DNA of 64,000 nucleotides from an uncultured Bacilli bacterium (GTDB taxonomy: Bacteria; Bacillota_I; Bacilli_A; RF39; UBA660): contig CANREL010000002.1 of the NCBI GenBank assembly GCA_947629655.1, positions 79,152 through 143,151 of the forward strand, given 5' to 3'. This document shows positions 5,357 through 20,431 of this stretch, in pieces. The translations under genes and the position numbers were made by a program. The notes beneath the pieces were generated by a model. The model was not told the origin of the DNA, did no database searches, and saw only the letters and a list, made by a program, of their open reading frames with translations. Within the stretch, counting starts at the first letter, position 1, and every line of letters begins with the position of its first letter.

Positions 5357-6370
5357 TTATTTGACATTGTCAAGTGTAAAGTTATCATTATTAATAATTT
5401 CAATAATTTCCTCACCATGAAGTTTTAGTTTTGTATTATCAAGTATTTTTGAATCTTTTAATTTTTCAATTGTATTTGGTTTTTCTTTAACTAATCTTTC
5501 AAGTTCAGCATTATTAAATACGTAATAAGCAGGTATTTTTCTATCTCTACTCTTCTTAGTTCTAAATTCTTTGAGTCTTGTTTCTAACGCAATATCATAT
5601 TCCATTGGTGATTCAGTATTATTTTCTTGTTCAATTTTTCCATATTTATCTTTTAGTTCTCTTACTCTTGTAATATTAGCATTTAAAAAGCCTTCACTAT
5701 TATCAAGCATCTGTTTTTGCGTAGATAAATTATCCCATGTTGTATTATTGTATTCTTTTTTCAAATATTCATTTAACTGATCAATTTTAACAATGTGATC
5801 TTTAATTTCTTTTGGTGCATATTTAATATTTAAGATACCTTTAGGATTACAAAACACTACTAAAGGTCGATACCAACTACTAAAATTTTTTTCAAACAAC
5901 AATTGACTCAATTTACCATTACGTTCTAACCATCTTTTCTTTATGAGTTCAATATGGCGCAAAGCCTGACGATATGGTGAATATATTGATTCTTTAATAT
6001 GTTTGCCATTTATATAATATTCTCTAACAAATTCCCCTTTATTATCAACAGTAACGTTTCCAATTAGATTTTTACATTCAACTATATAAGTCGCAGCTGG
6101 TGTATTTATAATATAATCTATTTGTGCTGTTAAGTCTTCATATGGCAAAGTTATATCATGTAATACATAAATTCCTAAATCACTTGTTTTTAGTTCATAT
6201 TCGATTTGTCTTTCACCCATTAAACCTAACTCTAATTTTTTAATATCGATATCTAATTTTTCTTTATCTTTTACTTGTTCACGAATACTTTTTAATTCAG
6301 CAATTTCTTTTTCTAATTCACTATCAGACTTTAAAAAAATCGTTTCTCTAAATCTATCAAATAATGCCAT
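5357..6370 (-). CDS. NERD (nuclease-related domain) protein with an HRDC-like C-terminal region
   Basis: NERD signature GERQIEYEL...VLHDITLP...IDYIINTPAATYIVECKNLIGNV and a C-terminal PAYYVFNNAELERLV...LHGEEII segment. The likely ATG is at 6370, with an AGGTGG RBS overlapping the mnmA stop. Confidence 0.7.
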   Translation of the reverse strand: MALFDRFRETIFLKSDSELEKEIAELKSIREQVKDKEKLDIDIKKLELGLMGERQIEYELKTSDLGIYVLHDITLPYEDLTAQIDYIINTPAATYIVECKNLIGNVTVDNKGEFVREYYINGKHIKESIYSPYRQALRHIELIKKRWLERNGKLSQLLFEKNFSSWYRPLVVFCNPKGILNIKYAPKEIKDHIVKIDQLNEYLKKEYNNTTWDNLSTQKQMLDNSEGFLNANITRVRELKDKYGKIEQENNTESPMEYDIALETRLKEFRTKKSRDRKIPAYYVFNNAELERLVKEKPNTIEKLKDSKILDNTKLKLHGEEIIEIINNDNFTLDNVK

Positions 6371-8400: not shown

Positions 8401-8443
8401 TTTAAAAATTAAAAAACTATATTAAGTATAACACTTAATATAG
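8401..8443 (-). terminator. Rho-independent terminator of the RHS-immunity transcript (11-bp perfect inverted repeat)
   Basis: CTATATTAAGT ataac ACTTAATATAG, followed on the minus strand by TTTTTTAATTTTT. Confidence 0.5.
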
Positions 8444-8512
8444 CAAAATTATTATTTATATATAATAAATTTAAATGAGAAAAATATTTTTGTTTGCTTT
8501 TAATAAATAATT

Positions 8513-9052
8513 CTATGTTCTTTTTTTACTATTATAATAATCAATTCTTTTTTTATCTTCACAATATTTGATTGATTCCTTTGCTGTTTTATTCAAATAT
8601 TCCAATATTTCACTTGGTTCATCAAAATTAATATTTGGCTCAGCATAGTAAAAGTTAATATTATTTTTTTTACACCAATCTATAATTATTCTTTTTTCTT
8701 CTTCTCTTCTAAACTCTTGAAATTCTCCCCATAAATCATTATCTTCACAAATACAATGAAATAAATTGAAATATGATATCAATTCGTTATCATCTATTAT
8801 TTTAATTCTATCCTTATCAATTACTAATTTATTAAACAAGGTTTTAATTTCTTTATTATTTTGAAAATTAATAGCAAACTCAATATTTTTATAAAAGGGA
8901 ATTTTAGGAACTTTAATGTAATTTTTTTTACTTTTAACTTTCAAATTTATAAAATCATATTCCTCTATAATTTCTAACGAATTAATATTAACATAATAAT
9001 CAATTATTTCATGAGTAAATGGTAAAATCAAATCATATATGTTTATTTTCAT
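8513..9052 (-). CDS. Putative cognate immunity protein of the RHS C-terminal toxin (179 aa, cytoplasmic, K/E/N-rich)
   Basis: Its ATG is 9 nt after the RHS stop, and an AAGGAGG RBS overlaps that stop. There is no signal peptide. The position is the canonical rhs-rhsI arrangement. Confidence 0.55.
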   Translation of the reverse strand: MKINIYDLILPFTHEIIDYYVNINSLEIIEEYDFINLKVKSKKNYIKVPKIPFYKNIEFAINFQNNKEIKTLFNKLVIDKDRIKIIDDNELISYFNLFHCICEDNDLWGEFQEFRREEEKRIIIDWCKKNNINFYYAEPNINFDEPSEILEYLNKTAKESIKYCEDKKRIDYYNSKKRT

Positions 9053-9061
9053 AAATCCTCC

Positions 9062-12000
9062 TTATGGTGTGAAATTTCCATACCAAATATGTACAGTATG
9101 ATATATATCATGATAATGACCATAATAATTAGGTCCATATCCATGGGTTTCTGGCACATCTACAAGTCTTGTTCCACTTTTCGAAACTTCTTCTGCTAAT
9201 GCCCTAGCATGAGCTTGATCTAATGTATAAATCCCTATCTTAGCTTTTCTACTTCCGTTCATTAACCTCAAAGCATTTATTTGTTTCTCTGCTTCTTCAA
9301 AGGTTAATGGCGTTGGTACAATAACCAGTTTATTTTTTTTATTAACAGTAGCAGGAAAATAAACTTTTTCATTTTTCTTTGGCTTTGAAGCTTTTGTATC
9401 TGGCAGTTTTCTAGTTTTAGAAATTGCAGCTTGAACTGCTTCAGTAAGATTTACTGCAATGCCCTTAAGACCATTTAATAATGATGGGAACATTGCTAAT
9501 CCAAGAATTCCAAGAACAGTTAATAATTCACCTGTACTAATTCCTAAAACTGCTAATGCAGCTTCAAATGGAAAATTACCATCAGGATCACTATAATTAA
9601 TTGGATTATTATGACAATACTCATATAAATTATACCCTGATATTTTATTATTTTCAACTAATATACTGTCTGCATTAATAAATCTACACCATTTTGGATT
9701 ATAATATCGACTGTTTAAATAATATAGTTTAGTTTCTTCATCATAATAATAACTTCTATATCTAAATGGATTAATATGACCAATATTATTATTATCTATT
9801 ATTTCAATACCATTTTCATCTTTTATAGATAAAATATTTCCCCATGAATCATATTCATAATTAACAACTTTAACATATTGTTCATTTAATATACCAACAA
9901 TATCGTTTTGTAAATTTTTTACATAATAGTATTTAGTTCCATTTATTGATAATCCAACAATACCTGTATGATCATATAGATAATATATTAAATCATTTCC
10001 GCGTTTTTCAAAAATAATATTCTTATCTTCTAAATAATAATTTATTTCTGTGTTATTTACCTTTTTACCTATTCTTATTCCATCTTTGTTATATTTATAC
10101 TCTACATATAAATTATTGATAATATCATTATAGGAATTTAATTCTCTACCATTTTTCCACTTCAATAAAATATTATTACCTATAGATGCAGGATTTCCAA
10201 TCATATCATATGATATCATCTGTTCATTAATTTTTGTTAACTTATCTTCCCATTCAACATCATCATATGAATAAATACATTCATCTATAATTTCTAATGT
10301 TTCAATATTGGTAATAGTTTTTCTCAATAAATTACCATTTAAATTGTAGATATAATTAATTTGTATATTTGAATTAAAATCTAATTCTTTTATTAGTTCA
10401 TTATAATCATCATAATAGTAGCTTTTTAGTAAAATACCATTACAGTAAATATCTGTGATATTATTCAATTTATCATATTTATAATTAAATATGTCATCTC
10501 CATTTTTTAAACTATCAATCAATAAAGAACTTTTTTTACCATGCAATTTATATTTATAATTTAAATCAAAATTATTTCCAATGTTTTTACTTATTAATCT
10601 ACCAAGGCTATCATAATTATAATATATTGTACTTTCATCTAATGTTGTTTTTATTACATTTATATTACTATCTAGTTCATTATCTATATTATGATAATAA
10701 TTTTTCAACTTAATTTTTTTACCAACTATCTTATTATTAGCACTATAATTATAATTAATTCTGAAATCATTAAATCTATATTCTTTTATTTTTTTTCCAA
10801 TATCATATGAATATTTTTCAGTATAATTATTGGATAAAATTTTAGTCAAATTTCCATTATTATCATATTTTAATTTATATTTATCATCAGATTTGATAAT
10901 ATTATTTAATCTAGAAAATTCATCATAATTAAATAGTATTTCATCTTTATTTCCATAAATAACTTTTGATAAACTTTCATTATTTTCTTTATATTCATTT
11001 GTAACTAATGTTATTGAATCCCCTATTGTTACTTTACTATTATTTAAGAAATTATCATAACTAAACTTATAATTTTTATTTCCAAAAATAATTTCATTAA
11101 GTTGATTGGAACTATTATAATTAAATGTTACTTTTCTATCTTTATTTGTTATAGATGTAATATTTTTTTTACTATCATATTCATAATAAGTTGTTTGATT
11201 TTTTGGATTTGTTATTGATTTAGTCAATCCATTTTTTTCATCTATATCATAATATGTAGTATTAGAATTACTATCAGTTTTACTTGTGATAAACCTACCA
11301 TCAGTAGTATATGTAGTTTTTTCTTCAATGAATTCTTCACATACGTTTTCTAAATAAAATTCAAATGAAGAATCATTGTATATTAATGGAGAAAATTCTA
11401 AAAAGTTATTATTCATCTTTAAATATATATCTTCATCTTCAAGTTTAATATAACAACTTCCATTATCTCTTGGTTCAAAAACAAACAAATTATTTTTATT
11501 AGAAGTAGTTAAATAAATATTACCTTCTAAATATGCAAATGAATAATTTGGCATCTCTGAAAAAATAATTTTATATTTATTATCAATTTTTTCTAAATTC
11601 CATATTGGATCACTACAATTATTATTATCTACAATAATCTCTTTTGTATTTTTTACTCTTAAATATTTATTGGTTCCTTTGACTCTAATCCGATAACTTC
11701 CATTTGACAATTCTTTACTCCATTTTTTTGAAGTCCTACAAACAGTTTCATTTCCAAATGAATCATATTTTGATTCTTTAACAAGCCCATTTGATGATAT
11801 TGAACTTAGTACTCTATCCTTAATTTCATTATCATATTCATATTTTAGATTTTCACCTTCTAATCCAGTTACAGTTAATAATTGATTATCTTTATTATAA
11901 CCAAATTTATTATCACTATTACCAACATTGTCTTTAATTGAAGATATGTTTCCATTAACATCATATTCATAATAATTTGTTGCTAGATCTTTAAATAAAG

Positions 12001-15000
12001 TTAGATTAGTAATATAAAAATCGTTTGCATTTCTTCCTTGATGAAAATCTAGTATTATTGATTTATAATCCCATTCTGCAACAAAATCATATGAAAAATA
12101 TTGCCAAATATTATCACTGTTATTAAATTCTGTGCTTGGCATTACACATTGTTCAATCTGACTGCCATCAGCTGGAATAAAATACATAGTTACATTATTT
12201 GCAACAAATTCTCCATCCCCATTTATTCCTTCATTTTTATACCAAAAAGATATACGATATAAATCCCCACTTTTTCCTTTTACTATAAATTCTTTTGAAA
12301 AACTTGAATAATTAAAAGGATCCATTTTAACTTTCAAAGCAGTATTCTTGTTATCATTGAAATTAACTAATTCAAATACTTTGTTTGTATCTACTGAAAT
12401 ATCATCAAAACTATCAAGAACATGAGCAGATAAATTCCAATCATCTAATCCATCAGAAAAATCGGAATTTTCAATTATATTATAATTGTTAACTACTTCT
12501 CCTTCTTCTAATTGTATATCATCAATATATGTCATACCTTCATCGTGAAACTTAATTACAATTGACAAATCAGTAAGTGCATCTTCTGCATAAAAAATTG
12601 TAACATCACTACGTTCAAAATTATCAGATATTTCAACCTCTTCATAACTATTAATATCAATACCATCTTTATTTAAGTAACTTAAACATAATTCAATTTT
12701 ACTTTGATTTTTAAAATAGCCACTAAAAGTATAATATTTACCTTTTGGTACAGAAAGAGTATAGCTTAAAAATTGGTCATTTGAAGTACTTAAAGCACTA
12801 AAACATCTATTACCAGAGTAAGAGCATTCATCTGTAATGCCAGTCGGCATTTTTCCATTAGAGGAAAAATATAGAGTTTCTTCTTCAAAACTAGAATTTT
12901 TTATATAGTTTTTAACATAACGAACAGGAATAGTATCCTTTAATAGCTTATTTTTTACATTTTTATCCTCACCATAATACTGAGTTATAGAATATGCATT
13001 ATTTATATCTTCACTAGAAAATAAACTATTATTAGATAAAACATTACCATTTGAATTAAATATTAATGTATTTTGTTTACCAAAATGATCAATAATGGTA
13101 GTTGTAAGAAATCCATAATTTAAAGAAAAGAAGTTACCTAGTGTATCGTTTAAACCATACTGTGTTACTTTTTTTATTTTAAATGGATATTCTTCATAAT
13201 AATCATATTTATTCTTCATACCAGTTACATCTGTAATACAATTTATTAAATTATTATTATTATATTCAAAATTAGTTATACCATCTTCTGTTTGAATTGA
13301 AACAACATTTTTATTATTATAATTTATTTTTGTTGTTGTATATGAACTCTCAACACTAATACAATTAGATTCATAATTAACATTAATTTCCGAACTATTT
13401 TCATCACAAATTTTAGTAATTAAATTATTATCATTTCGTTCTATTTTTAATATATTATTACTAATGTTTGTAATACTTGTAAGATACCAAAGTGTACCAA
13501 ATTTTGTAAAAGTCATTTTATTCGTGTATTGATCTGTCATAATATAATCACTATCTATTTTTTCTATAGAAAGATTTAAACCATCTTCATCATAATATAC
13601 ATTAGATGTATTAACATCATTTTCGCCAAATGCTAAATCTTTAATAAAATAATGGATTGTTCCATCATCATCAATATACTCTAAATAATCTTGTTCTTCT
13701 ATTTTTAATTCCCTAATAGTTTGATCTAAATTTAATCTATAGCCCTTACCATATATAGTATTATTATTTAATACTACATCATTTGTATTATATACCAAAT
13801 CTAAATTTCCCTTTAATTTGCTACCTACTGTAGAACCTAAATTCCAAATTCCTGTCAAATTACCATTAAAACAATTAACATAAGTCTTTCCATTTTCAAA
13901 GCATTGTTCTTTATATTCTAAATATTCTTCTAATCCATTTTGATTTCGATATACAATTTCTAGTGTAGGTTGAAGATTAGAGGTTTCATCACTATTTTTT
14001 GAAATAAAGGCTGGAAAATTATCATCTATATAAACTTCATTAGGCGATTTGATCATTATTCCATAATTTGGTGTTCCTGTATACCATTTTTTTACTAAAT
14101 TAGTTATATCATTATACGGAGATGATACAGTAACGATTTCATCATCATCATCAGTAAAACTTCTACTACAATAATATATACTTTCAACTTTACTAGAATA
14201 TTTATCATTCATAGTAGACCAATTTGCAGTTTTTTCATCCCAATCTTTAGTAATTCTATGAATTGTAACTAATTTATTATTATTAGGTTTATTCTCAACT
14301 GCTGGAAAAGAAATTAATTGTAACCTAGCAAAAATTATTTCACTTCCAGTTCCTATTTTTGGTAAATCAAATTTTACTAATGTTCTATTAATATAATCAA
14401 CACCATTTAATCTCTCTACTCCTGCTTTTAATATATTTTTACTATTTCTATCAACATTTGTATCGTTTGGATAAATATATGTATCATATACATTACCACC
14501 ATCTATAAAATTAGAAATTGTTGGATCTATTGAAACTGGAAAAATTGTATCATTAGAATTTAACCACTCTGAATCTAATGTTAATTCAAGTTCATAAATT
14601 CCATTAAACTTTTTTAAATTATAAAATATATTATTATTAATATTATTATTAGAATCAAACATATATGGTTGTTCAATTTCAAATATAACATTATTATCTT
14701 TTTTAGCAATTATTGAATTTTTATCAATAGATAATTCTAAATTAGTATTTACTAGAAAGTTTAGCTTATCAATAATCTTCTCTCTTTTATTTATTACTAT
14801 TGTTTCTTTAACTTTATTAGGTGTTGTTTGATATTTTATATCAATTCCATCTAATATATCTTTATAAATTATATTACTAATTAATTTACTATTTTGTTTT
14901 TCTTTTCTAGCAAAAACATCGTTAGAATCCTTTAATTTCATTTCTAAATAATCATTTTCTTTTTCCATTCTAACGATTGTATTACTGCTATGTTCATTAT

Positions 15001-15196
15001 AGTACACTTTAAAATTATTAGAGCTATTGCAAAAATAATTATCTTTTTTTATTAAAGTATTATCTATTTCTTCAAATTTACCATCTTTAAAATAATGAAT
15101 ATCATTACTATACATTTTAGCAACAATCGTACCATCTTTTTGTAAAAAGTGCTTTTCTTTTTTTCCTCTTTTTTCAATTAATTCAATTTCTTTCAA
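9062..15196 (-). CDS. RHS/YD-repeat polymorphic toxin (2044 aa). Two tandem CBM-like modules map at about 12.0-12.9 kb and a ricin-B/beta-trefoil lectin at about 11.40-11.70 kb. The RHS core ends ...YLNSRYYNPKWCRFINADS, followed by NYSDPDG. The 171-aa C-terminal toxin maps to 9062-9577.
   Basis: Many YDxxGR(L) repeats (e.g. YNYDSLGRLISK). The RHS-core terminal consensus RYYxPxxxRFxxxD and the DPxG autoproteolysis motif are at 9578-9589. TTG start with a GAGGAGTG RBS. No signal peptide or LXG N-terminus. Confidence 0.9.
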   Translation of the reverse strand: MKEIELIEKRGKKEKHFLQKDGTIVAKMYSNDIHYFKDGKFEEIDNTLIKKDNYFCNSSNNFKVYYNEHSSNTIVRMEKENDYLEMKLKDSNDVFARKEKQNSKLISNIIYKDILDGIDIKYQTTPNKVKETIVINKREKIIDKLNFLVNTNLELSIDKNSIIAKKDNNVIFEIEQPYMFDSNNNINNNIFYNLKKFNGIYELELTLDSEWLNSNDTIFPVSIDPTISNFIDGGNVYDTYIYPNDTNVDRNSKNILKAGVERLNGVDYINRTLVKFDLPKIGTGSEIIFARLQLISFPAVENKPNNNKLVTIHRITKDWDEKTANWSTMNDKYSSKVESIYYCSRSFTDDDDEIVTVSSPYNDITNLVKKWYTGTPNYGIMIKSPNEVYIDDNFPAFISKNSDETSNLQPTLEIVYRNQNGLEEYLEYKEQCFENGKTYVNCFNGNLTGIWNLGSTVGSKLKGNLDLVYNTNDVVLNNNTIYGKGYRLNLDQTIRELKIEEQDYLEYIDDDGTIHYFIKDLAFGENDVNTSNVYYDEDGLNLSIEKIDSDYIMTDQYTNKMTFTKFGTLWYLTSITNISNNILKIERNDNNLITKICDENSSEINVNYESNCISVESSYTTTKINYNNKNVVSIQTEDGITNFEYNNNNLINCITDVTGMKNKYDYYEEYPFKIKKVTQYGLNDTLGNFFSLNYGFLTTTIIDHFGKQNTLIFNSNGNVLSNNSLFSSEDINNAYSITQYYGEDKNVKNKLLKDTIPVRYVKNYIKNSSFEEETLYFSSNGKMPTGITDECSYSGNRCFSALSTSNDQFLSYTLSVPKGKYYTFSGYFKNQSKIELCLSYLNKDGIDINSYEEVEISDNFERSDVTIFYAEDALTDLSIVIKFHDEGMTYIDDIQLEEGEVVNNYNIIENSDFSDGLDDWNLSAHVLDSFDDISVDTNKVFELVNFNDNKNTALKVKMDPFNYSSFSKEFIVKGKSGDLYRISFWYKNEGINGDGEFVANNVTMYFIPADGSQIEQCVMPSTEFNNSDNIWQYFSYDFVAEWDYKSIILDFHQGRNANDFYITNLTLFKDLATNYYEYDVNGNISSIKDNVGNSDNKFGYNKDNQLLTVTGLEGENLKYEYDNEIKDRVLSSISSNGLVKESKYDSFGNETVCRTSKKWSKELSNGSYRIRVKGTNKYLRVKNTKEIIVDNNNCSDPIWNLEKIDNKYKIIFSEMPNYSFAYLEGNIYLTTSNKNNLFVFEPRDNGSCYIKLEDEDIYLKMNNNFLEFSPLIYNDSSFEFYLENVCEEFIEEKTTYTTDGRFITSKTDSNSNTTYYDIDEKNGLTKSITNPKNQTTYYEYDSKKNITSITNKDRKVTFNYNSSNQLNEIIFGNKNYKFSYDNFLNNSKVTIGDSITLVTNEYKENNESLSKVIYGNKDEILFNYDEFSRLNNIIKSDDKYKLKYDNNGNLTKILSNNYTEKYSYDIGKKIKEYRFNDFRINYNYSANNKIVGKKIKLKNYYHNIDNELDSNINVIKTTLDESTIYYNYDSLGRLISKNIGNNFDLNYKYKLHGKKSSLLIDSLKNGDDIFNYKYDKLNNITDIYCNGILLKSYYYDDYNELIKELDFNSNIQINYIYNLNGNLLRKTITNIETLEIIDECIYSYDDVEWEDKLTKINEQMISYDMIGNPASIGNNILLKWKNGRELNSYNDIINNLYVEYKYNKDGIRIGKKVNNTEINYYLEDKNIIFEKRGNDLIYYLYDHTGIVGLSINGTKYYYVKNLQNDIVGILNEQYVKVVNYEYDSWGNILSIKDENGIEIIDNNNIGHINPFRYRSYYYDEETKLYYLNSRYYNPKWCRFINADSILVENNKISGYNLYEYCHNNPINYSDPDGNFPFEAALAVLGISTGELLTVLGILGLAMFPSLLNGLKGIAVNLTEAVQAAISKTRKLPDTKASKPKKNEKVYFPATVNKKNKLVIVPTPLTFEEAEKQINALRLMNGSRKAKIGIYTLDQAHARALAEEVSKSGTRLVDVPETHGYGPNYYGHYHDIYHTVHIWYGNFTP

Positions 15197-15221
15197 AATA
15201 TCACTCCTCTACAAAAAATTA

Positions 15222-15893
15222 TTAAGATACTCTCTTCCACATATAAACAGCTAAATATGGAGGTAAATTACTGCTAGCAGAAGTTCCTGGTGAAGTTTTT
15301 CCTGTTTCGCCTGGAGTGGTGCTATTAGTGTTTCCTGCTAATGCAGTAGCTCGTGTATTAGATGTTGATGATGTACCATGGCCAGAGGTTGTCGCCTTAG
15401 TATTGTCTTTCCAACTTGTTACACCAGTTTTAGTTGAGGCATATATACCATTAGCAGTTGCTGATGCGTTAATTAGTGCATAACCATTAGATAGACCATG
15501 AGTATGAGCAGCACTTGTATGAGAATGTGAATCAACAGTATGTGAATGAGTAATGCTACCACCTGTACTACCATTTGCATAATCATTCCCACAAGCTAGT
15601 AAGAAAGTATCTTTTATTTGTTCCCATCCTCCACCAATTAATATATCAGGACTTGTCTCGTTAACAGACATATAGATAGATCCTATTGGATATATTAAAT
15701 TTAAAATTTCTTCTCGTGAAAACATACCTTCCTGTACTTCAAGACTCTTACCAGTAATATGTCCTTCACTGTCAATTCCAAAAGCATTATTTTTAGATGT
15801 TATACATCCAGCAGTTAAATTATCAACTTCTTCATTTACGTTATCTCCATCTTTTGTAAAAGCATTAATTATATAATCATATTCTTCATTCAT
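15222..15893 (-). CDS. Phage tail-collar-domain-like protein with an HxH cluster and a Gly/Ser/Thr-rich tail (223 aa)
   Basis: LIYPIGSIYMSVNETSPDILIGGGWEQI...GGSITHSHTVDSHSHTSAAHTHG...NLPPYLAVYMWKRV matches the phage tail collar pattern (PIG(S/A)I...GW...PPY...). It lies 25 nt upstream of the RHS start. Confidence 0.55.
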   Translation of the reverse strand: MNEEYDYIINAFTKDGDNVNEEVDNLTAGCITSKNNAFGIDSEGHITGKSLEVQEGMFSREEILNLIYPIGSIYMSVNETSPDILIGGGWEQIKDTFLLACGNDYANGSTGGSITHSHTVDSHSHTSAAHTHGLSNGYALINASATANGIYASTKTGVTSWKDNTKATTSGHGTSSTSNTRATALAGNTNSTTPGETGKTSPGTSASSNLPPYLAVYMWKRVS

Positions 15894-15912
15894 TTATAAA
15901 ACCTTCTTTCTC

Positions 15913-16935
15913 TTATTTTAAATATTTATTAGCCACATATCCTGTCTTACTATTATATTTAACTTTTGACCAAATGTAGCCATTATTATTTCCAGCATTT
16001 TCTAATAAGACCTCAACTACTTTTTTATGAGGAATTGTTAATATAACACTAGAATTTGTAGTTGCTTTAGATCTTAAATTAAGACCCAATGTAGCATTAA
16101 CTGTTTTTGTTATTTTAGATGTAGTAGATGAAGAAACAAATTTTATATCATCTTCATCCATCCAACCTAAATCCCCCGTAGTATTATAAGGATGTTTTGC
16201 ATTTTTAACATATCTAGTGATTTTTGTTTTTTTATTTGTTACTTTACCAGCTGTGTTTATATAATTTGCAGTTATATATAAATTTCCACTAATAATGACT
16301 TCATCTCCTAAGTTAAATTTATTAGTATTACTTGAACTAGCGGTTCCTTCACTTTTTAAGTTTGAATCAACATTAGAACCATCATAATTTATAAAATTCG
16401 ATTTTCCATGTTTAGTCCATGTTCGTGTATTATAACCATTTCTACTGCCTATATTTCCTACAGCAGTTATTTGAACTCCATCTTTCCATATTGGAGTACA
16501 TTCAACAGCTAAACCATCGCCTATATAAATTCCAATATGCCCACTCATCCATAAAAATTCGCCAGGAACAATAGTGTTAAAATTTGTTGATATATCAGTA
16601 CAATAATTATTAAACATTTGATTGGCATTTTTATCTGGAACACCATTTGAAGCATACTTTGCTCCTCCATAAGTCGCATTGGTCTTTCCAGACCAGCCCC
16701 ACAAAATTCCTTTTATTAGACAAACGCAATCAAATCCAAATGTATTATATTCTGCATTATTTATTTTAGTTGATCTGCTTAATTGCATATTATATGAATA
16801 GTTTTTGGTATAGCGTGATTTATTAGAGGATGTCATTGGTGATCCGAAGCATCCCATTACATATAATGTTTTATATTTAGTTGCAATTTCCTTTATTTTA
16901 TTAACAAGAGTAGTTGCAAGCATGACTTTAGTCAT
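15913..16935 (-). CDS. Signal-less peptidoglycan hydrolase (NlpC/P60-CHAP / Amidase_5-like papain-fold catalytic domain plus two SH3b domains); endolysin-like
   Basis: Catalytic Cys in FGFDCVCLIKGILWGW and His in SGHIGIYIGDGLAVECTP. SH3b-like ...GYIWSKVKYNSKTGYVANKYLK. No signal peptide. Confidence 0.65.
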   Translation of the reverse strand: MTKVMLATTLVNKIKEIATKYKTLYVMGCFGSPMTSSNKSRYTKNYSYNMQLSRSTKINNAEYNTFGFDCVCLIKGILWGWSGKTNATYGGAKYASNGVPDKNANQMFNNYCTDISTNFNTIVPGEFLWMSGHIGIYIGDGLAVECTPIWKDGVQITAVGNIGSRNGYNTRTWTKHGKSNFINYDGSNVDSNLKSEGTASSSNTNKFNLGDEVIISGNLYITANYINTAGKVTNKKTKITRYVKNAKHPYNTTGDLGWMDEDDIKFVSSSTTSKITKTVNATLGLNLRSKATTNSSVILTIPHKKVVEVLLENAGNNNGYIWSKVKYNSKTGYVANKYLK

Positions 16936-17045
16936 TATGTTACATCCTTTTCATTTTCATTGTATACTTCCTCTATATCACCAATAACATCTACATAATC
17001 TTCTATTTCAGCTAATTTTTTAAAATGCAAATTATTTTTTTTCAT
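16935..17045 (-). CDS. Possible 36-aa acidic peptide (MKKNNLHFKKLAEIEDYVDVIGDIEEVYNENEKDVT) between the holin and the lysin
   Basis: Its TAA overlaps the lysin ATG (TAATG). A weak AGGAAAGAAG lies upstream. The ORF is below the ORF-track cut-off. Confidence 0.25.
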   Translation of the reverse strand: MKKNNLHFKKLAEIEDYVDVIGDIEEVYNENEKDVT

Positions 17046-17050
17046 TTTTA

Positions 17051-17305
17051 TTACTTCTTTCCTGACTTGTTTTTTGTTTGAATTTCATAGCCACCGATAC
17101 TTAATGCCATTCCTAAAGATACAATAAGAGCAGTTGCCCAATCATCAAACAAATTCATATAAATTGCTATTATTGCAGAAATTATACCTACAATAATATT
17201 TTGAATAGGAATATATTTTGATGAAACTATTTTATCTTTAGTTATTACTCCAAGTATCGCTGCAACAACCGCTGTAACAACTGCGAAGATAAATTCAATT
17301 GTCAT
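17051..17305 (-). CDS. Holin-like small membrane protein (84 aa; 2-3 TM helices with a basic C-terminal tail KNKSGKK)
   Basis: Hydrophobic helices IEFIFAVVTAVVAAILGVI, IIVGIISAIIAIYM and ALIVSLGMALSIGGY. It lies immediately upstream of the signal-less lysin. AAGGAAGGTGA RBS. Confidence 0.55.
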   Translation of the reverse strand: MTIEFIFAVVTAVVAAILGVITKDKIVSSKYIPIQNIIVGIISAIIAIYMNLFDDWATALIVSLGMALSIGGYEIQTKNKSGKK

Positions 17306-17350
17306 CTAATCACCTTCCTTTTTAATTCTAATTTTTAGAATATTTTTTAA

Positions 17351-18094
17351 TTACCAATTTCCTGACCAAGTAGTCTCTGCACAATCAATTGCGTCATATT
17401 TGTTTATGACACCTGACTCAAAAACAATTCCAGTTGTACCGACTGTATATTTTTTTGAATCGGACAATGTAACACTTGAAGTCGCATGAGCATAATCGCC
17501 GTATGCAAATTGTCTTAATATTGTAGATTGTGTATTTTTTTCTACATCAAAATACATTTTCTGATTTAAAGAAGAAAGATTCCCTGTTGGAACTTGGAAA
17601 GTTACTCCAACACCATTGGATCCAACATAAGAATATTTGTATCCAGTAGATGTATAACAATCATCATTTGTTACACAATAGTTTTCAGCAAATATAGGGG
17701 TAGTGGCAACTTTCACACTAGATGGAAATCCTATAGCAATAGTGTCATAACTTCTTACTTTTGGAATATTTTTCCATTCAAGAGTTACTGTATATCTATA
17801 ATGTGAATCAACTTTTGATATTGATGTTGTCATTTTCTTATATGTTGTTTCTATTGTTGTACTATTTGCATCAATCATTGGATTGTAAGATTCATATTCA
17901 TCTCTTGAAATTTCCACTGTGTATGAATTATTATTTGTTTCATTACTAAAGCTTTGCACAGATGATTGTATTGTAACTGTTTTATAATATTTCGTATTAA
18001 AAGTCTCAAGTATATCTTCTTCTATTTGACTTGCAAAAATTGCAAGTGGACTTATTGCATATAAAATAGAAAACAATACTACAAATTTTTTCAT
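17351..18094 (-). CDS. Secreted protein of unknown function (Sec signal peptide MKKFVVLFSILYAISPLAIFA)
   Basis: AAAGGAGG RBS with the ATG at 18094. The hydrophobic N-terminus is followed by a mature domain with no recognisable motif. Confidence 0.6.
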   Translation of the reverse strand: MKKFVVLFSILYAISPLAIFASQIEEDILETFNTKYYKTVTIQSSVQSFSNETNNNSYTVEISRDEYESYNPMIDANSTTIETTYKKMTTSISKVDSHYRYTVTLEWKNIPKVRSYDTIAIGFPSSVKVATTPIFAENYCVTNDDCYTSTGYKYSYVGSNGVGVTFQVPTGNLSSLNQKMYFDVEKNTQSTILRQFAYGDYAHATSSVTLSDSKKYTVGTTGIVFESGVINKYDAIDCAETTWSGNW

Positions 18095-18224
18095 CGCTAT
18101 CCTCCTTTCCACTTACACTTTAAATAAATAAAAGCGGTAATTAAACTACTTTTCAGGAGAACTTTCTCTCTTTTTAGGAGAAATTTTAATTTAAAATTCA
18201 TCTCTTTTTAAGAGAGTTTCTTAT

Positions 18225-18262
18225 TTTTACAATATAAAAGCAATCTATCAAAAATAGATTGC
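18225..18262 (-). terminator. Rho-independent terminator after the membrane XRE regulator gene
   Basis: GCAATCTAT caaaa ATAGATTGC, with a T-rich tract on the minus strand. Confidence 0.45.
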
Positions 18263-18263
18263 C

Positions 18264-19058
18264 TTAATACATTATTTTATTGTTAGTAAACTTTTCTTCG
18301 AAATTTAATTTAATCTTAGTCCTAATTATTTTATCTTGTTCGTTTTTACATTCAATAATTAATTCTAGTTCATCAAGATTTGTATTATAATCAATAACAT
18401 TAGCATTATTTTTCTTTGATTCATCTACACTAAATGATAGTTTTGATAATACTTCACTTAATAACATATCTTCTTCAACTAATTTACTAAAAGATAAGAT
18501 GTTTAGATCATGATTCATAATAAATATATTTATTTCTTTGATTTTAGGTTCATCAGAAGTTCCTCTATTATTTCCTTGATAATTTATATTGTTTATTATT
18601 AATAAATTTTGATTCTGATTAAAAACTAAATATCCATTAATAGCATAATCAGAGTTTAAACTTGATATCGTATATACTTTGCTTTTATTATAATTACTAA
18701 TTAGAAATAGAAAAGAAAAAATAAAAGTAATTATAGTAAAAATTACTATCCCTATAAATATATATTGTTTTTTCAAGAAATCAATATAAAATCTTATACC
18801 TGCAATAGTAGTTTTATTATTAATTTCTTTTTCCTCTTGTTTTATTCTTTCTCCATTCATTATTTCATTTACTGAAACACCTAATATTTGTGATAAATTT
18901 TCTAATTTTGAAAGAGATGGTGCTGTTAATCCTGTTTCCCACTTAGATACTGATTTTCCATTTATACCTAGTTTTTCGCCTAATTCTTCTTGAGTTAACC
19001 TCTTTTCATCTCGCAATTTTGCAATAAATCTACCAATTTTATCTTTATCTAACTTCAT
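18264..19058 (-). CDS. Membrane-anchored XRE-family (Cro/CI-type HTH) transcriptional regulator with an extracytoplasmic C-terminal domain
   Basis: HTH LRDEKRLTQEELGEKLGINGKSVSKWETG, then a TM segment IFIGIVIFTIITFIFSFLFLI. AGGAG RBS. Confidence 0.7.
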   Translation of the reverse strand: MKLDKDKIGRFIAKLRDEKRLTQEELGEKLGINGKSVSKWETGLTAPSLSKLENLSQILGVSVNEIMNGERIKQEEKEINNKTTIAGIRFYIDFLKKQYIFIGIVIFTIITFIFSFLFLISNYNKSKVYTISSLNSDYAINGYLVFNQNQNLLIINNINYQGNNRGTSDEPKIKEINIFIMNHDLNILSFSKLVEEDMLLSEVLSKLSFSVDESKKNNANVIDYNTNLDELELIIECKNEQDKIIRTKIKLNFEEKFTNNKIMY

Positions 19059-19071
19059 ATAATACTCCTAA

Positions 19072-19398
19072 TCAAAAATTATTATTATTTAGAAAATCTT
19101 GTAAATTAACATCAAATATTAACGATAATTTAATTAGATTATCTAAAGTAACATGTTTACATTTGTCTTTTTCATTCTCTAACCTCTTATAATGAACCTT
19201 ACTTATACCTAGATATGATGATATATTTTCTGTACTATAAGGATTATGATAACTTTGAACGCCTTTGTATTGTTTTTTATAATTGTTATAGCGTTGTGTT
19301 CTAAAATTTTTAATATTTCTACATATTATTTTTCTTTCTTCTTTAATATCTAAGTTATCTAGTAGTTCATATATCTGATAAACATGTTTAACTTCCAT
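19072..19398 (-). CDS. XRE-family HTH regulator (small, Cro/repressor-like)
   Basis: HTH ISSYLGISKVHYKRLENE...LDNLIKLSLIFDVNLQDF. The likely start is MEVKHVY, with AGGTGG 6 nt upstream. Confidence 0.65.
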   Translation of the reverse strand: MEVKHVYQIYELLDNLDIKEERKIICRNIKNFRTQRYNNYKKQYKGVQSYHNPYSTENISSYLGISKVHYKRLENEKDKCKHVTLDNLIKLSLIFDVNLQDFLNNNNF

Positions 19399-19614
19399 TA
19401 GTACCACCTACATAATTATCACATTATTAAAAAAATAAATTGGTATCATTTTAGGACATTTTTACAAATTTTTAATGTACAAAAAAAAGTAGAATTTAAT
19501 TCTACTCCAATATTTTAGTGTTCAATTTCATTTAAATAATTTACATTTTTCTTATTTTATAAATATTTAAATCTAAATTAAATTTTTGTTTTTAGCTTTA
19601 AATTAACATTTAAA

Positions 19615-19670: not shown

Positions 19671-20042
19671 TCATTTATAAAAATGGTTTACTTTTTTTCT
19701 CATTGAGTTATATTCTTCATCTTGATATTTTTGGCAAGAAAGGTATACTGTGGCATTCCATTTACCATTAGAACACTTTCCATAAATTACAACTTTACAA
19801 TAAGACTTTTTATCAACATCTAATAGTATATTTTTGTCACTTCCACGAGCTCTAAGATTAGTAATATCCTTTTCATAAAGATATTCTTCTCTACCTTCAT
19901 TATATTTAGAAGGAAGAGTTATTTCCAAATACCGAACAGCTTCTTCTAATATGTCGTTTTTAATTTGATTATATCTATTCATATTATATTTATGTTTTAT
20001 TAATATAAATATAGTAGAAAGTGCAATGATACTAGTTGTCAA
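19671..20042 (-). CDS. Small membrane-anchored protein (about 123-134 aa); the 5' end is disrupted or phase-variable at an A8 tract
   Basis: A perfect GAGGT-N5-ATG at 20074 leads into ATGAAAAAAAAG-TAA, which is out of frame by one A. With A9 the product would begin MKKKVIIIVLILTTS... Only a TTG at 20042 is in frame. Confidence 0.4.
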   Translation of the reverse strand: MTTSIIALSTIFILIKHKYNMNRYNQIKNDILEEAVRYLEITLPSKYNEGREEYLYEKDITNLRARGSDKNILLDVDKKSYCKVVIYGKCSNGKWNATVYLSCQKYQDEEYNSMRKKVNHFYK

Positions 20043-20113: not shown

Positions 20114-20431
20114 TTATATCATATTACTATGACTTGATAGTATATTTAATTTTTCAAGTCTTTCTTTTTGCGAAACATTATTATCTATCATACTGGCATT
20201 AATAACCTCTAAATTACTTAGAACTACTAGATGCAAGATATCCATATAATCTCTAATATTCCCTTTCAAATTAAAAGCAGAGTCAATCCAAGATGCAAAC
20301 TCCAATGCTATATCAGGATGGGCAAAAGTGCCACCATCATATTTTCTTCTTTTGCTCATAAAACCTTTGGCATTAATTGTAATTATCCATCTAGAAAGAC
20401 TCATCGTAAAAGATTATACTCTGAATCATTT
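20114..20431 (-). CDS. KilA-N/APSES-type DNA-binding domain fragment (phage-associated)
   Basis: ...SRWIITINAKGFMSKRRKYDGGTFAHPDIALEFASWIDSAF matches the C-terminal half of KilA-N (GTWxHPxxAxxFAxWL). The N-terminal half is missing. Confidence 0.4.

Follow-up and report, generated by a model that had tools for sequence, protein, structure and literature searches.

We analyzed a 64,000-nucleotide stretch of DNA from an uncultured Bacilli bacterium (hereafter the window), in which a gene for a very large RHS toxin stands next to genes of the phage lysis type. Nine open reading frames (ORFs) in the same orientation, all on the minus strand, lie between positions 19407 and 8513; these are the nine co-oriented genes, with matching coordinates, of an earlier sequence-only reading, and family-profile searches of each protein returned identities mostly as described there. 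Taken in the direction of reading, they encode a possible regulator, a membrane-anchored XRE-family regulator (XRE-TM), a secreted protein, a holin-like protein, a micro-ORF, an endolysin, a tail-fibre-like collar protein, the RHS toxin, and a putative immunity protein. The last genes are closely packed, with 19 nucleotides (nt) between lysin and collar and 25 nt between collar and RHS, in agreement with the 19–25 nt first reported for all gaps from the lysin onward; the gap between the RHS and immunity genes is shorter, at 9 nt. The cluster DNA has a G+C content of 20–30%, similar to that of the remaining window.

The RHS toxin, its immunity gene and the collar protein

The RHS gene (9062..15196, minus strand, as are all genes and features of the cluster given below) encodes an RHS/YD polymorphic toxin of 2044 amino acids (aa), with DNRLRE, RHS_core and Rhs_assc_core domains and YD repeats (RHS_repeat, E = 9e-14; YD_repeat_2x, 37 bits against a cut-off of 15.8). 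Its N-terminal domain (aa 1–230; 14507..15196), a signature of the family, is weakly matched by DUF7948 (E = 2e-4), and NCBIfam and PDB sequence searches gave at best weak matches for it. A DNRLRE domain follows at aa 238–414 (13955..14485; NF033679, E = 1.7e-22, 80 bits against a cut-off of 34). The RHS repeat-associated core at aa 1782–1873 (9578..9853; TIGR03696, E = 4e-19, 69 bits against a cut-off of 32.5) ends in DPDGN and marks the end of the cocoon. Beyond it lies the polymorphic C-terminal toxin domain (9065..9574), in which a hydrophobic stretch is followed by a YYGHYH...HIWYG motif, and for which no match was found in Pfam, NCBIfam, or PDB. Homology among the 59 non-redundant loci described below stops, in most of them, at about aa 1875; the C-termini differ, with Ntox44 in some, and the C-terminal domain of the window was found in only a few loci (L029, L032, L049, and L083).

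This toxin had been claimed to carry neither a signal peptide nor an N-terminus of the LXG or type VII secretion system (T7SS) type, and both points were borne out. Indeed, the N-terminus (MKEIELIEKRGKKEKHF...) is hydrophilic, with a maximal 12-residue hydropathy of 0.26, the ORF cannot be extended upstream, and a conserved hydrophilic N-terminus was present in 43 of 43 full-length RHS homologues. A Pfam search of aa 1–230 revealed no LXG or WXG100 domain, the weak DUF7948 match being the only one.

Nine nt after the toxin gene, a gene for a putative immunity protein of 179 aa (8513..9052) shows a weak match to UPF0158, and its homologues follow related toxins in L032 and L081. More generally, homologous small genes follow homologous RHS C-termini across loci. 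Incidentally, we noticed that stand-alone small ORFs with a YY.HYH...H.HIW motif occur downstream of other RHS genes (L069, 18262–18543; L083, 12647–12802). The window toxin itself ends in YYGHYHDIYHTVHIWYG, and these ORFs are apparently orphan cassettes for a toxin domain not yet described. Downstream of the RHS gene, many loci (L016, L018, L021, L023, L066, and L081) also have arrays of C-terminal RHS fragments, each followed by a small gene. By their arrangement they look like orphan toxin–immunity cassettes, the classical substrate for C-terminal displacement.

The collar protein (223 aa; 15222..15893) had been described as a tail-collar-like protein with HxH motifs; it has these motifs and matches Gp10_C (PF21939, E = 6e-14, 53.6 bits against a cut-off of 27). 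A profile of its family matched the C-domain of T4 gp10 (2fkk), and also 2fl8 and 5hx2 (E = 3e-8). Nearly all of its 3427 homologues are 180–230 aa long, and their conservation, given as consensus fraction, is uneven. It is 0.78 for the N-terminal anchor (aa 13–52) and 0.77 for the Gp10_C core, whereas an insert at aa 136–205 is hypervariable (0.28, with many indels). Since a fixed anchor combined with a hypervariable insert is the anatomy of receptor-binding proteins, the alignment suggests that the collar is of this type, with a fixed anchor and a variable tip. The collars have no N-terminal hydrophobic segment (median hydropathy 0.41). Some loci encode two or three collars in tandem and others a 380–400-aa version. 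In L123 and L126 (3002–6269), three co-oriented fibre-like paralogues of 326, 294, and 465 aa precede a signal-less RHS gene. The 294- and 465-aa proteins share an N-terminus of the form MAYQKT..NN..PAL..KNLNK, the 326- and 294-aa ORFs are only weak matches to the collar profile, and the fibre partner may here be of a second type.

Coupling of collar and RHS genes across gut Bacilli

A scan of one genome per species yielded 79 loci, mostly from uncultured gut Bacilli. The hosts included Ca. Scybalousia, Coprovivens, Faecimonas, and Caccenecus, and relatives were labelled Bacilli incertae sedis. To study pairing, we pooled the scan loci with those retrieved earlier and kept the loci encoding a collar including its N-terminal region, which again numbered 79. 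An RHS gene lay directly downstream of the collar gene in 71 of these 79 loci, with a median gap of ~13 nt, and 59 non-redundant groups were obtained. The exceptions were contig ends or tandem collars. As a matter of fact, in every collar context first retrieved, the next gene encoded an RHS protein of ~2050 aa that was homologous over aa 1 to ~1875. Judged by gene content, the collar is an obligate partner of the signal-less RHS protein, and the invariant core of the system is made of the collar, the signal-less RHS, and the immunity gene. The sequence-only reading had placed the collar in the lysis module; instead, it partners the RHS protein, also where no lysis cassette is present.

We then turned to viral genomes. 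A search of 2.9 million IMG/VR contigs was made, and the best 80 Gp10_C matches were examined. No RHS gene lay within 10 kb of any of the 80; nearly all matched in the C-domain only, at the tail end of longer fibre proteins. Likewise, proteins of 450–900 aa that match in the C-domain only are without RHS and are ordinary phage fibres. The anchor-bearing collar subfamily was seen only beside RHS genes and not in the viral contigs examined. As an annotation rule, a Gp10_C protein with the N-terminal anchor marks a signal-less RHS gene immediately downstream.

Holin-like and lysin genes of the window

The holin-like membrane protein (84 aa; 17051..17305) has two to three transmembrane segments and matches the holin family phrog_1299 (E = 1e-5); matches to Phage_holin_5_1 and 5_2 stayed below the cut-off (20–22 bits against 22–29). 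It has a charged tail, KNKSGKK, and its size, transmembrane scan, and position fit a holin. Moreover, its homologues adjoin lysins in L005, L011, and L040.

The next gene, a micro-ORF of 36 aa (16935..17045), had been described as coupled to the lysin by a TAATG overlap. The overlap of its stop with the lysin start was confirmed, but its standing as an independent gene was rejected. Indeed, the micro-ORF aligns with the C-terminal tail of the longer, 105-aa holin homologue of L040 (17762–18079; VIGDIEEVYNENEKD against AIGDSSEVYDELEIKD; shuffle p ~0.002), and because of this resemblance it is probably a split-off holin tail. Thus, in the species of the window, stop codons seem to have divided the holin in two, leaving a membrane part and a tail that is translated separately.

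The lysin (340 aa; 15913..16935) matches the endolysin family phrog_3513 (E = 1e-18). As first reported, it is without a signal peptide. Two SH3b domains had been claimed, but a single SH3_3 domain was detected (aa 284–340, E = 5e-12). Its catalytic domain had no match in Pfam or NCBIfam, and at best a weak one in PDB sequence searches. We therefore took an AlphaFold2 model (pLDDT 88) to Foldseek: the top ~28 PDB matches were all NlpC/P60 proteins, though weak ones (E of at least 5e-3, TM-score 0.44–0.67, probability 1.0), so that the model points weakly to an NlpC/P60-like fold. Across 27 homologues, Cys70 and His133 do not vary. The catalytic domain has more than 5500 homologues, at 60–75% identity, in fusions with SH3_3, PG_binding_1, CW_7, LysM, or ChW modules, and such variety is the hallmark of a modular phage endolysin domain.

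Different lysis cassettes recur beside the collar–RHS pair

The neighbours of the 59 non-redundant pairs were clustered and recurrent clusters were annotated, a cassette being defined as a lysin plus a holin within ~2.7 kb of the pair. By this definition, 21 of the 59 loci carried a cassette, as did 19 of the 37 loci whose flanks reached 3 kb or more on each side; these rates are approximate, as downstream flanks covered ~3.7 kb and lysin detection relied on families already seen. Lysin matches were concentrated close to the pair, with 24 at 0–2 kb (202 kb sampled) versus 3 at 3–10 kb (338 kb sampled; binomial p = 5e-8). None of the 21 adjacent lysins had an N-terminal signal (maximal hydropathy at most 1.22).

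At least five unrelated cassette types were distinguished. A Holin_5-like protein with an NlpC/P60-SH3 or Amidase_2 lysin is found in the window, L005, L011, and L040. In eight loci, and in variants thereof, the genes immediately upstream of the collar encode an XhlA-like protein, a holin of ~75 aa (phrog_443), and an M23 endolysin of ~312 aa. Two small membrane proteins with an M23-LysM lysin lie downstream of the immunity gene in six loci, where a sigma factor of the extracytoplasmic function (ECF) type is usually encoded upstream of the collar. L079 combines an M23 lysin with a holin of the TcdE family (TIGR01593, "toxin secretion/phage lysis holin", 62 bits against a cut-off of 40), and L095 a CHAP-SH3 lysin with Phage_holin_6_1. 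We also noticed, in L125, a TcdE-type holin alone (5770–6132), immediately upstream of the collar–RHS pair and without a lysin, between the housekeeping genes queA and uvrC. This holin-only arrangement resembles the TpeL and TcsL loci.

Two loci illustrate how such cassettes are placed. In L090, two HTH genes are followed by the XhlA-like, holin, M23, Gp10_C, RHS (Ntox44), and immunity genes, the cluster sitting between spoIVA and spoVIF/der. In L095, on a 1-Mb scaffold and between housekeeping genes, the order is XRE (on the reverse strand), XRE-TM, secreted protein, Phage_holin_6_1, CHAP-SH3, Gp10_C, RHS, and immunity. L095 hence repeats the gene order of the window with another holin family and another lysin family. 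Housekeeping genes flank both sides in the window, L090, and L095, and the upstream side in L005; capsid, portal, terminase, and tail genes were absent from all four contexts. When 111 flank genes of the 21 cassette-positive loci were pooled and scanned against PHROG, tail proteins turned up only in L076 and L081, where the pair comes after the fibre–holin–lysin block of a prophage. "Terminase" matches in the flanks were discarded, being in fact TraG/VirB4-type conjugation ATPases.

The sequence-only reading regarded the cassette as a candidate release system and not a chance prophage leftover, and asked whether holin, lysin, collar, and RHS co-occur in relatives without phage structural genes. 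The recurrence of non-homologous holin–lysin sets by the pair, in 19 of 37 loci, speaks for the first point. On the second, the answer is mixed: the combination does recur, but about half of the loci are without a cassette, and a tail protein precedes it in L076 and L081. Given that half, the cassette is not obligatory in cis.

Sec-signal relatives as a natural control

The N-terminal domain of the RHS protein (aa 1–230) has 4064 homologues. In the closest ~100 cluster representatives, it starts at residue 1 of proteins of 2000–2100 aa; in distant homologues, it starts at residue 55–75, behind a classic Sec signal peptide. Its position behind Sec signals in these relatives indicates that the domain is extracellular and not itself a secretion or T7SS signal. 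Read on these alignments, the RHS subfamily of the window is one from which the Sec route was lost.

Neither collar nor lysis genes were present in two relatives of the Sec type that we looked up individually. A metagenome scan seeded with Sec-type N-termini gave 33 non-redundant signal-bearing loci. Collar, lysin, or holin matches were found in 0 of these 33, lysin detection being of limited sensitivity there, and among 144 neighbouring ORFs pooled for Pfam annotation no peptidoglycan-hydrolase or holin family had two or more members. The same scan also returned five signal-less loci. All five had a collar directly upstream, one had an XhlA–holin–M23 cassette, and one a TcdE-type holin alone. 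Signal-less and Sec-type loci differed in the presence of the collar (Fisher, 2e-6) and of a cassette (8e-7), although the shared ancestry of the loci means that these values overstate significance.

Regulators, transcription, and flanks

Upstream of the lysis genes, the sequence-only reading had seen two XRE repressors, one of them membrane-anchored, and a Cro/CI-like switch. The membrane-anchored one stood: the XRE-TM protein (264 aa; 18264..19058; HTH_3, E = 8e-14) has a single hydrophobic segment at about aa 98–122. The other did not, as the 111-aa protein (19072..19407), a possible regulator, has only sub-threshold helix-turn-helix matches (HTH_19, E = 1.3e-3, 19 bits against a cut-off of 30; HTH_3 likewise). 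A homologue of it (48% identity) lies upstream of an XRE-TM gene in L033. The case for a switch is accordingly weak, the two regulator genes being co-oriented and not divergent.

The secreted protein (17351..18112; public gene calls start at ATG 18094, giving 247 aa) does have a signal peptide, in line with its first description as secreted. No Pfam match was found, and its model shows an Ig-like beta-sandwich of generic type, whose matches to pilins and adhesins are non-specific. We considered it as a lysis or assembly factor and dropped this idea, since the fold is generic and the XRE-TM and secreted-protein genes pair in many loci, some of them without RHS. The pair has 203 homologues and no Pfam family; RHS was missing from three of four further contexts, namely L097, where the pair ends a conjugative element, and L099 and L100, where it is near serine recombinases. 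For these reasons, the secreted protein was excluded from the core system. As far as gene neighbourhoods tell, XRE-TM and the secreted protein are a separate mobile pair, treated here as a regulatory module that is sometimes adjacent to the toxin genes and may serve mobile elements in sensing or regulation.

A terminator-like hairpin with a 13-bp stem lies directly 3′ of the XRE-TM gene (18237..18265; −17.9 kcal/mol, z of −6 versus shuffles). Because of it, the nine genes probably form more than one transcription unit, and not the single operon first proposed. A promoter scan was uninformative in this AT-rich DNA, with 125 sites against 118 expected. Elsewhere, a ~160-aa ECF-type sigma-70 factor (TIGR02937) is, after XRE regulators, the commonest neighbour of collar–RHS pairs. 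It is present in 15 of 59 loci, including L029, L049, L052, L055, L056, L060, and L079, directly upstream and/or a few kb downstream, and it is reminiscent of the sigma factors of TcdR/UviA type that clostridia have at toxin and bacteriocin loci. No such factor is encoded in the window.

The island is also present in four further assemblies of the same species. Below the cluster are NUDIX, MnmA, and NERD-HRDC genes; above it are a KilA-N fragment, SpoIIM, and a polysaccharide flippase. The sequence-only reading had set its proposal against a plain prophage lysis module flanked by structural genes. No capsid, portal, terminase, or tail genes stand beside the cluster, where housekeeping genes are found instead, and a blastn search of 15200–19450 against 50,697 phage genomes gave no match. 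The sole traces resembling mobile elements in the flanks are the KilA-N ORF (96 aa; 20114..20404, minus strand; PF04383), in which the match covers only aa 17–47, that is, profile positions 66–96 of 107, and an ORF of 123 aa (19671–20042) that has a hydrophobic segment at its N-terminus; they lie just upstream of the cluster. Both are kept in the other assemblies of the species.

A model of lysis-dependent release, and its alternatives

On balance, and with moderate confidence, we favour the view that the locus is a lysis-released, phage-derived polymorphic toxin system, a view drawn from gene content and arrangement. Its components are held with different degrees of confidence. A functional link between the cassette and the RHS gene is likely, and a role of the cassette in release is reasonably probable, with indirect support from the Sec-bearing relatives, which have neither holin nor lysin nearby. 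In this model, the collar, as a small trimeric-fibre-type protein, and the ~2050-aa RHS cocoon would be made and folded in the cytoplasm. Both would leave through the action of the holin and the signal-less endolysin, whether because a fraction of the producers is lysed or because the holin opens a route without lysis. Once outside, the N-terminal anchor of the collar would dock onto the conserved N-terminal domain of the RHS protein. The collar would act as the receptor-binding subunit, aided by the DNRLRE and lectin-like domains of the RHS protein; that it is the targeting subunit is a plausible but tentative assignment. The self-cleaved C-terminal toxin would then be delivered into a competitor, presumably a bacterium, while sibling cells would be protected by the immunity protein. 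Whether this amounts to an undescribed class of Gram-positive bacteriocin, in which a fibre-on-RHS particle is assembled in the cytoplasm, freed by a captured lysis cassette, and aimed via an exchangeable tip, is a more speculative proposal still.

Several points weigh against this view. All host organisms are uncultured metagenome-assembled genomes, known here from their genes alone. No lysis genes could be recognised within ~3–4 kb in about half of the loci that were adequately sampled (for example, L010, L021, and L093). In L076 and L081, cassette and pair come directly after a phage tail protein (phrog_372), and their lysis genes may simply belong to a prophage. The loci are not phylogenetically independent, which is why the Fisher values exaggerate the contrast with Sec-type loci. 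Finally, a co-released lysin could breach the wall of the target cell instead of serving the exit of the toxin.

This last point can be developed into an alternative that is compatible with the release model, though unlikely to be the whole explanation: the holin exports the lysin, the lysin opens the target peptidoglycan so that the 230-kDa RHS complex reaches the target membrane, and the RHS protein itself leaves the producer otherwise. That half of the loci manage without a cassette in cis would fit, as would the modular build of all adjacent lysins, which carry cell-wall-binding domains (SH3b, LysM, or CW_7). How very large RHS proteins of the WapA type cross the wall is moreover an acknowledged problem in the field (PMC12704120). 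Yet, the Sec-bearing relatives meet the same target wall and 0 of 33 had a recognisable lysin nearby, the TcdE-type holin without a lysin in L125 fits exit better than wall attack, and signal-less lysins still need a holin, hence a compromised membrane in the producer.

Hitch-hiking is less probable again. Here the lysis genes would be remnants of a prophage, or part of a live one, and the collar–RHS pair a moron that entered the usual cargo site next to phage lysis genes, with no dedicated functional tie between them. The tail protein immediately upstream of the holin, M23, collar, and RHS genes in L076 and L081 speaks for this explanation, and it can also call on the KilA-N fragment 0.7 kb upstream of the cluster, on lysin fragments in L007, L008, and L017, and on the catalytic domain of the window lysin, a very common phage lysin module. 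However, tail proteins occur in only these two of the 21 cassette-positive loci, and the window, L090, L095, and L005 (upstream) have housekeeping flanks and no structural genes. The absence of RHS genes within 10 kb of the best 80 IMG/VR matches also speaks against it, and non-homologous cassettes occupy the same position in different species. The window lysin is also intact, with its invariant Cys and His kept.

Finally, the N-terminal anchor might attach collar and RHS to the baseplate of a phage or tailocin encoded elsewhere, with the RHS protein as a fibre- or spike-borne payload, loosely as Rhs on the type VI secretion (T6SS) spike, and the cassette freeing the particles. Gp10_C is indeed a baseplate and fibre domain, and lysis cassettes accompany tailocin loci such as those of R-type pyocins and diffocins, but this is very improbable, since no sheath, tube, or baseplate genes were found near the pair in the Pfam-annotated contexts, anchor-bearing collars occur only beside RHS genes and not in viral contigs, and we know of no tailocins documented in small-genome gut Bacilli. 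A listing of RHS together with tail-fibre repeats among systems of the Photorhabdus virulence cassette (PVC) type speaks on its side (Zhang et al., PMC3482391).

Relation to known systems

The release model shares its general logic with lysis-released bacteriocins, that is, colicins with their lysis proteins, S-type pyocins, and R/F-type tailocins or diffocins, which have holin–lysin cassettes and fibre receptor-binding proteins that can be exchanged. The bacteriocin is cytoplasmic, immunity is provided, the producer bears a cost, and a receptor-binding protein of the phage-fibre type with a variable tip sets specificity. Unlike tailocins, the present locus has no tail, sheath, or tube; the killing unit would be an RHS cocoon with interchangeable enzymatic or membrane-active C-termini. 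Lysis in the colicin systems is described in PMC3482391.

In logic, the nearest known systems are the Tc toxin and clostridial toxin loci. Holin/endolysin-dependent release of signal-less large toxins is established for the Tc toxins of Yersinia (PMC10847048) and for clostridial TcdA/TcdB (PMC3369941, PMC11344133). The Tc or type 10 secretion systems of Yersinia entomophaga and Serratia (PMC10847048, PMC10847046) likewise encode a very large, signal-less RHS-cocoon toxin next to holin and endolysin genes of phage origin and to a regulator dedicated to the system, and release occurs by lysis of a specialised subpopulation. They differ in several respects. The Tc system is Gram-negative and includes a spanin, whereas the host of the window is Gram-positive. 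The Tc toxin is a three-part A-B-C assembly in which pentameric TcA binds the receptor and translocates; here, the RHS protein is a single chain, and the receptor-binding candidate is a ~200-aa Gp10_C fibre-type protein. In addition, the cassette is present in only about half of our loci. Because the C-termini are polymorphic and accompanied by immunity genes, unlike in Tc, an interbacterial use seems indicated rather than an insecticidal one.

The clostridial loci (TcdE/TcdL/TcdR of the C. difficile pathogenicity locus; TpeE; TcsE) are Gram-positive like ours (PMC3369941, PMC11344133, PMC8878733). In them, a large toxin without a signal is accompanied by a holin of phage type, by an endolysin or what is left of one, and by an alternative sigma factor or regulator dedicated to the locus. 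The likeness extends to the TcdE-family holin (TIGR01593) of the related locus L079 and to the holin alone in L125. Their cargo, however, is a glucosyltransferase toxin aimed at host cells, whereas ours is a polymorphic toxin of the RHS kind with an immunity gene. TcdL is what remains of a lysin, whereas the window lysin is intact and modular, and the clostridial toxin loci are without a fibre-like partner.

With the WapA-type RHS proteins of B. subtilis and S. suis (PMC12704120), its nearest counterparts by protein family, the window toxin shares the YD/RHS shell, the core with its self-cleavage motif, a DNRLRE domain in the N-terminal region, and a polymorphic C-terminal toxin with immunity. 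WapA carries a Sec signal peptide and wall-anchoring modules and stays on the surface of the producer, whereas the window family has no signal, shows strict coupling to a collar, and often has lysis genes linked to it, its own Sec-bearing relatives having neither. MuF toxins of temperate Firmicutes phages (PMC5576092) have in common with the locus a phage association, immunity genes, the absence of a classical secretion signal, and Gram-positive gut hosts; they are, however, head-morphogenesis fusions in complete prophages, thought to travel in capsids, and the window locus has no MuF domain, no capsid genes, and an RHS scaffold. Work on a bacterial teneurin noted that some signal-less proteins may use other routes.

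The combination of a Gram-positive RHS toxin with its own holin–lysin cassette and a Cro/CI-like switch had been put forward as new. Leaving aside the switch, for which the case is weak, full-text literature searches brought up no account of a Gram-positive RHS system that lacks a signal, has a fibre partner, and is linked to lysis genes.

Significance

For RHS proteins of more than 200 kDa, the export routes described in Gram-positive bacteria are Sec with wall anchoring, as in WapA, and a proposed T7SS route. The present family points to a possible third one: where the Sec signal was lost, a phage-fibre partner was gained and, in many cases, a lysis cassette as well. Should the more speculative bacteriocin proposal hold, the locus would in effect be an "RHS tailocin" devoid of a tail, the equivalent of the Tc toxins on the Gram-positive side and widespread in uncultured gut Bacilli, and the family would have switched between Sec export and lysis release in the course of evolution. 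Fibre tip, lysis cassette, and toxin tip are all swapped between species, and the parts could be re-targeted like tailocins. The family gives a testable contrast between Sec export and lysis release. If the release model is confirmed, holin/endolysin-dependent release would extend from insect and host toxins to the interbacterial polymorphic toxins of the gut microbiota.

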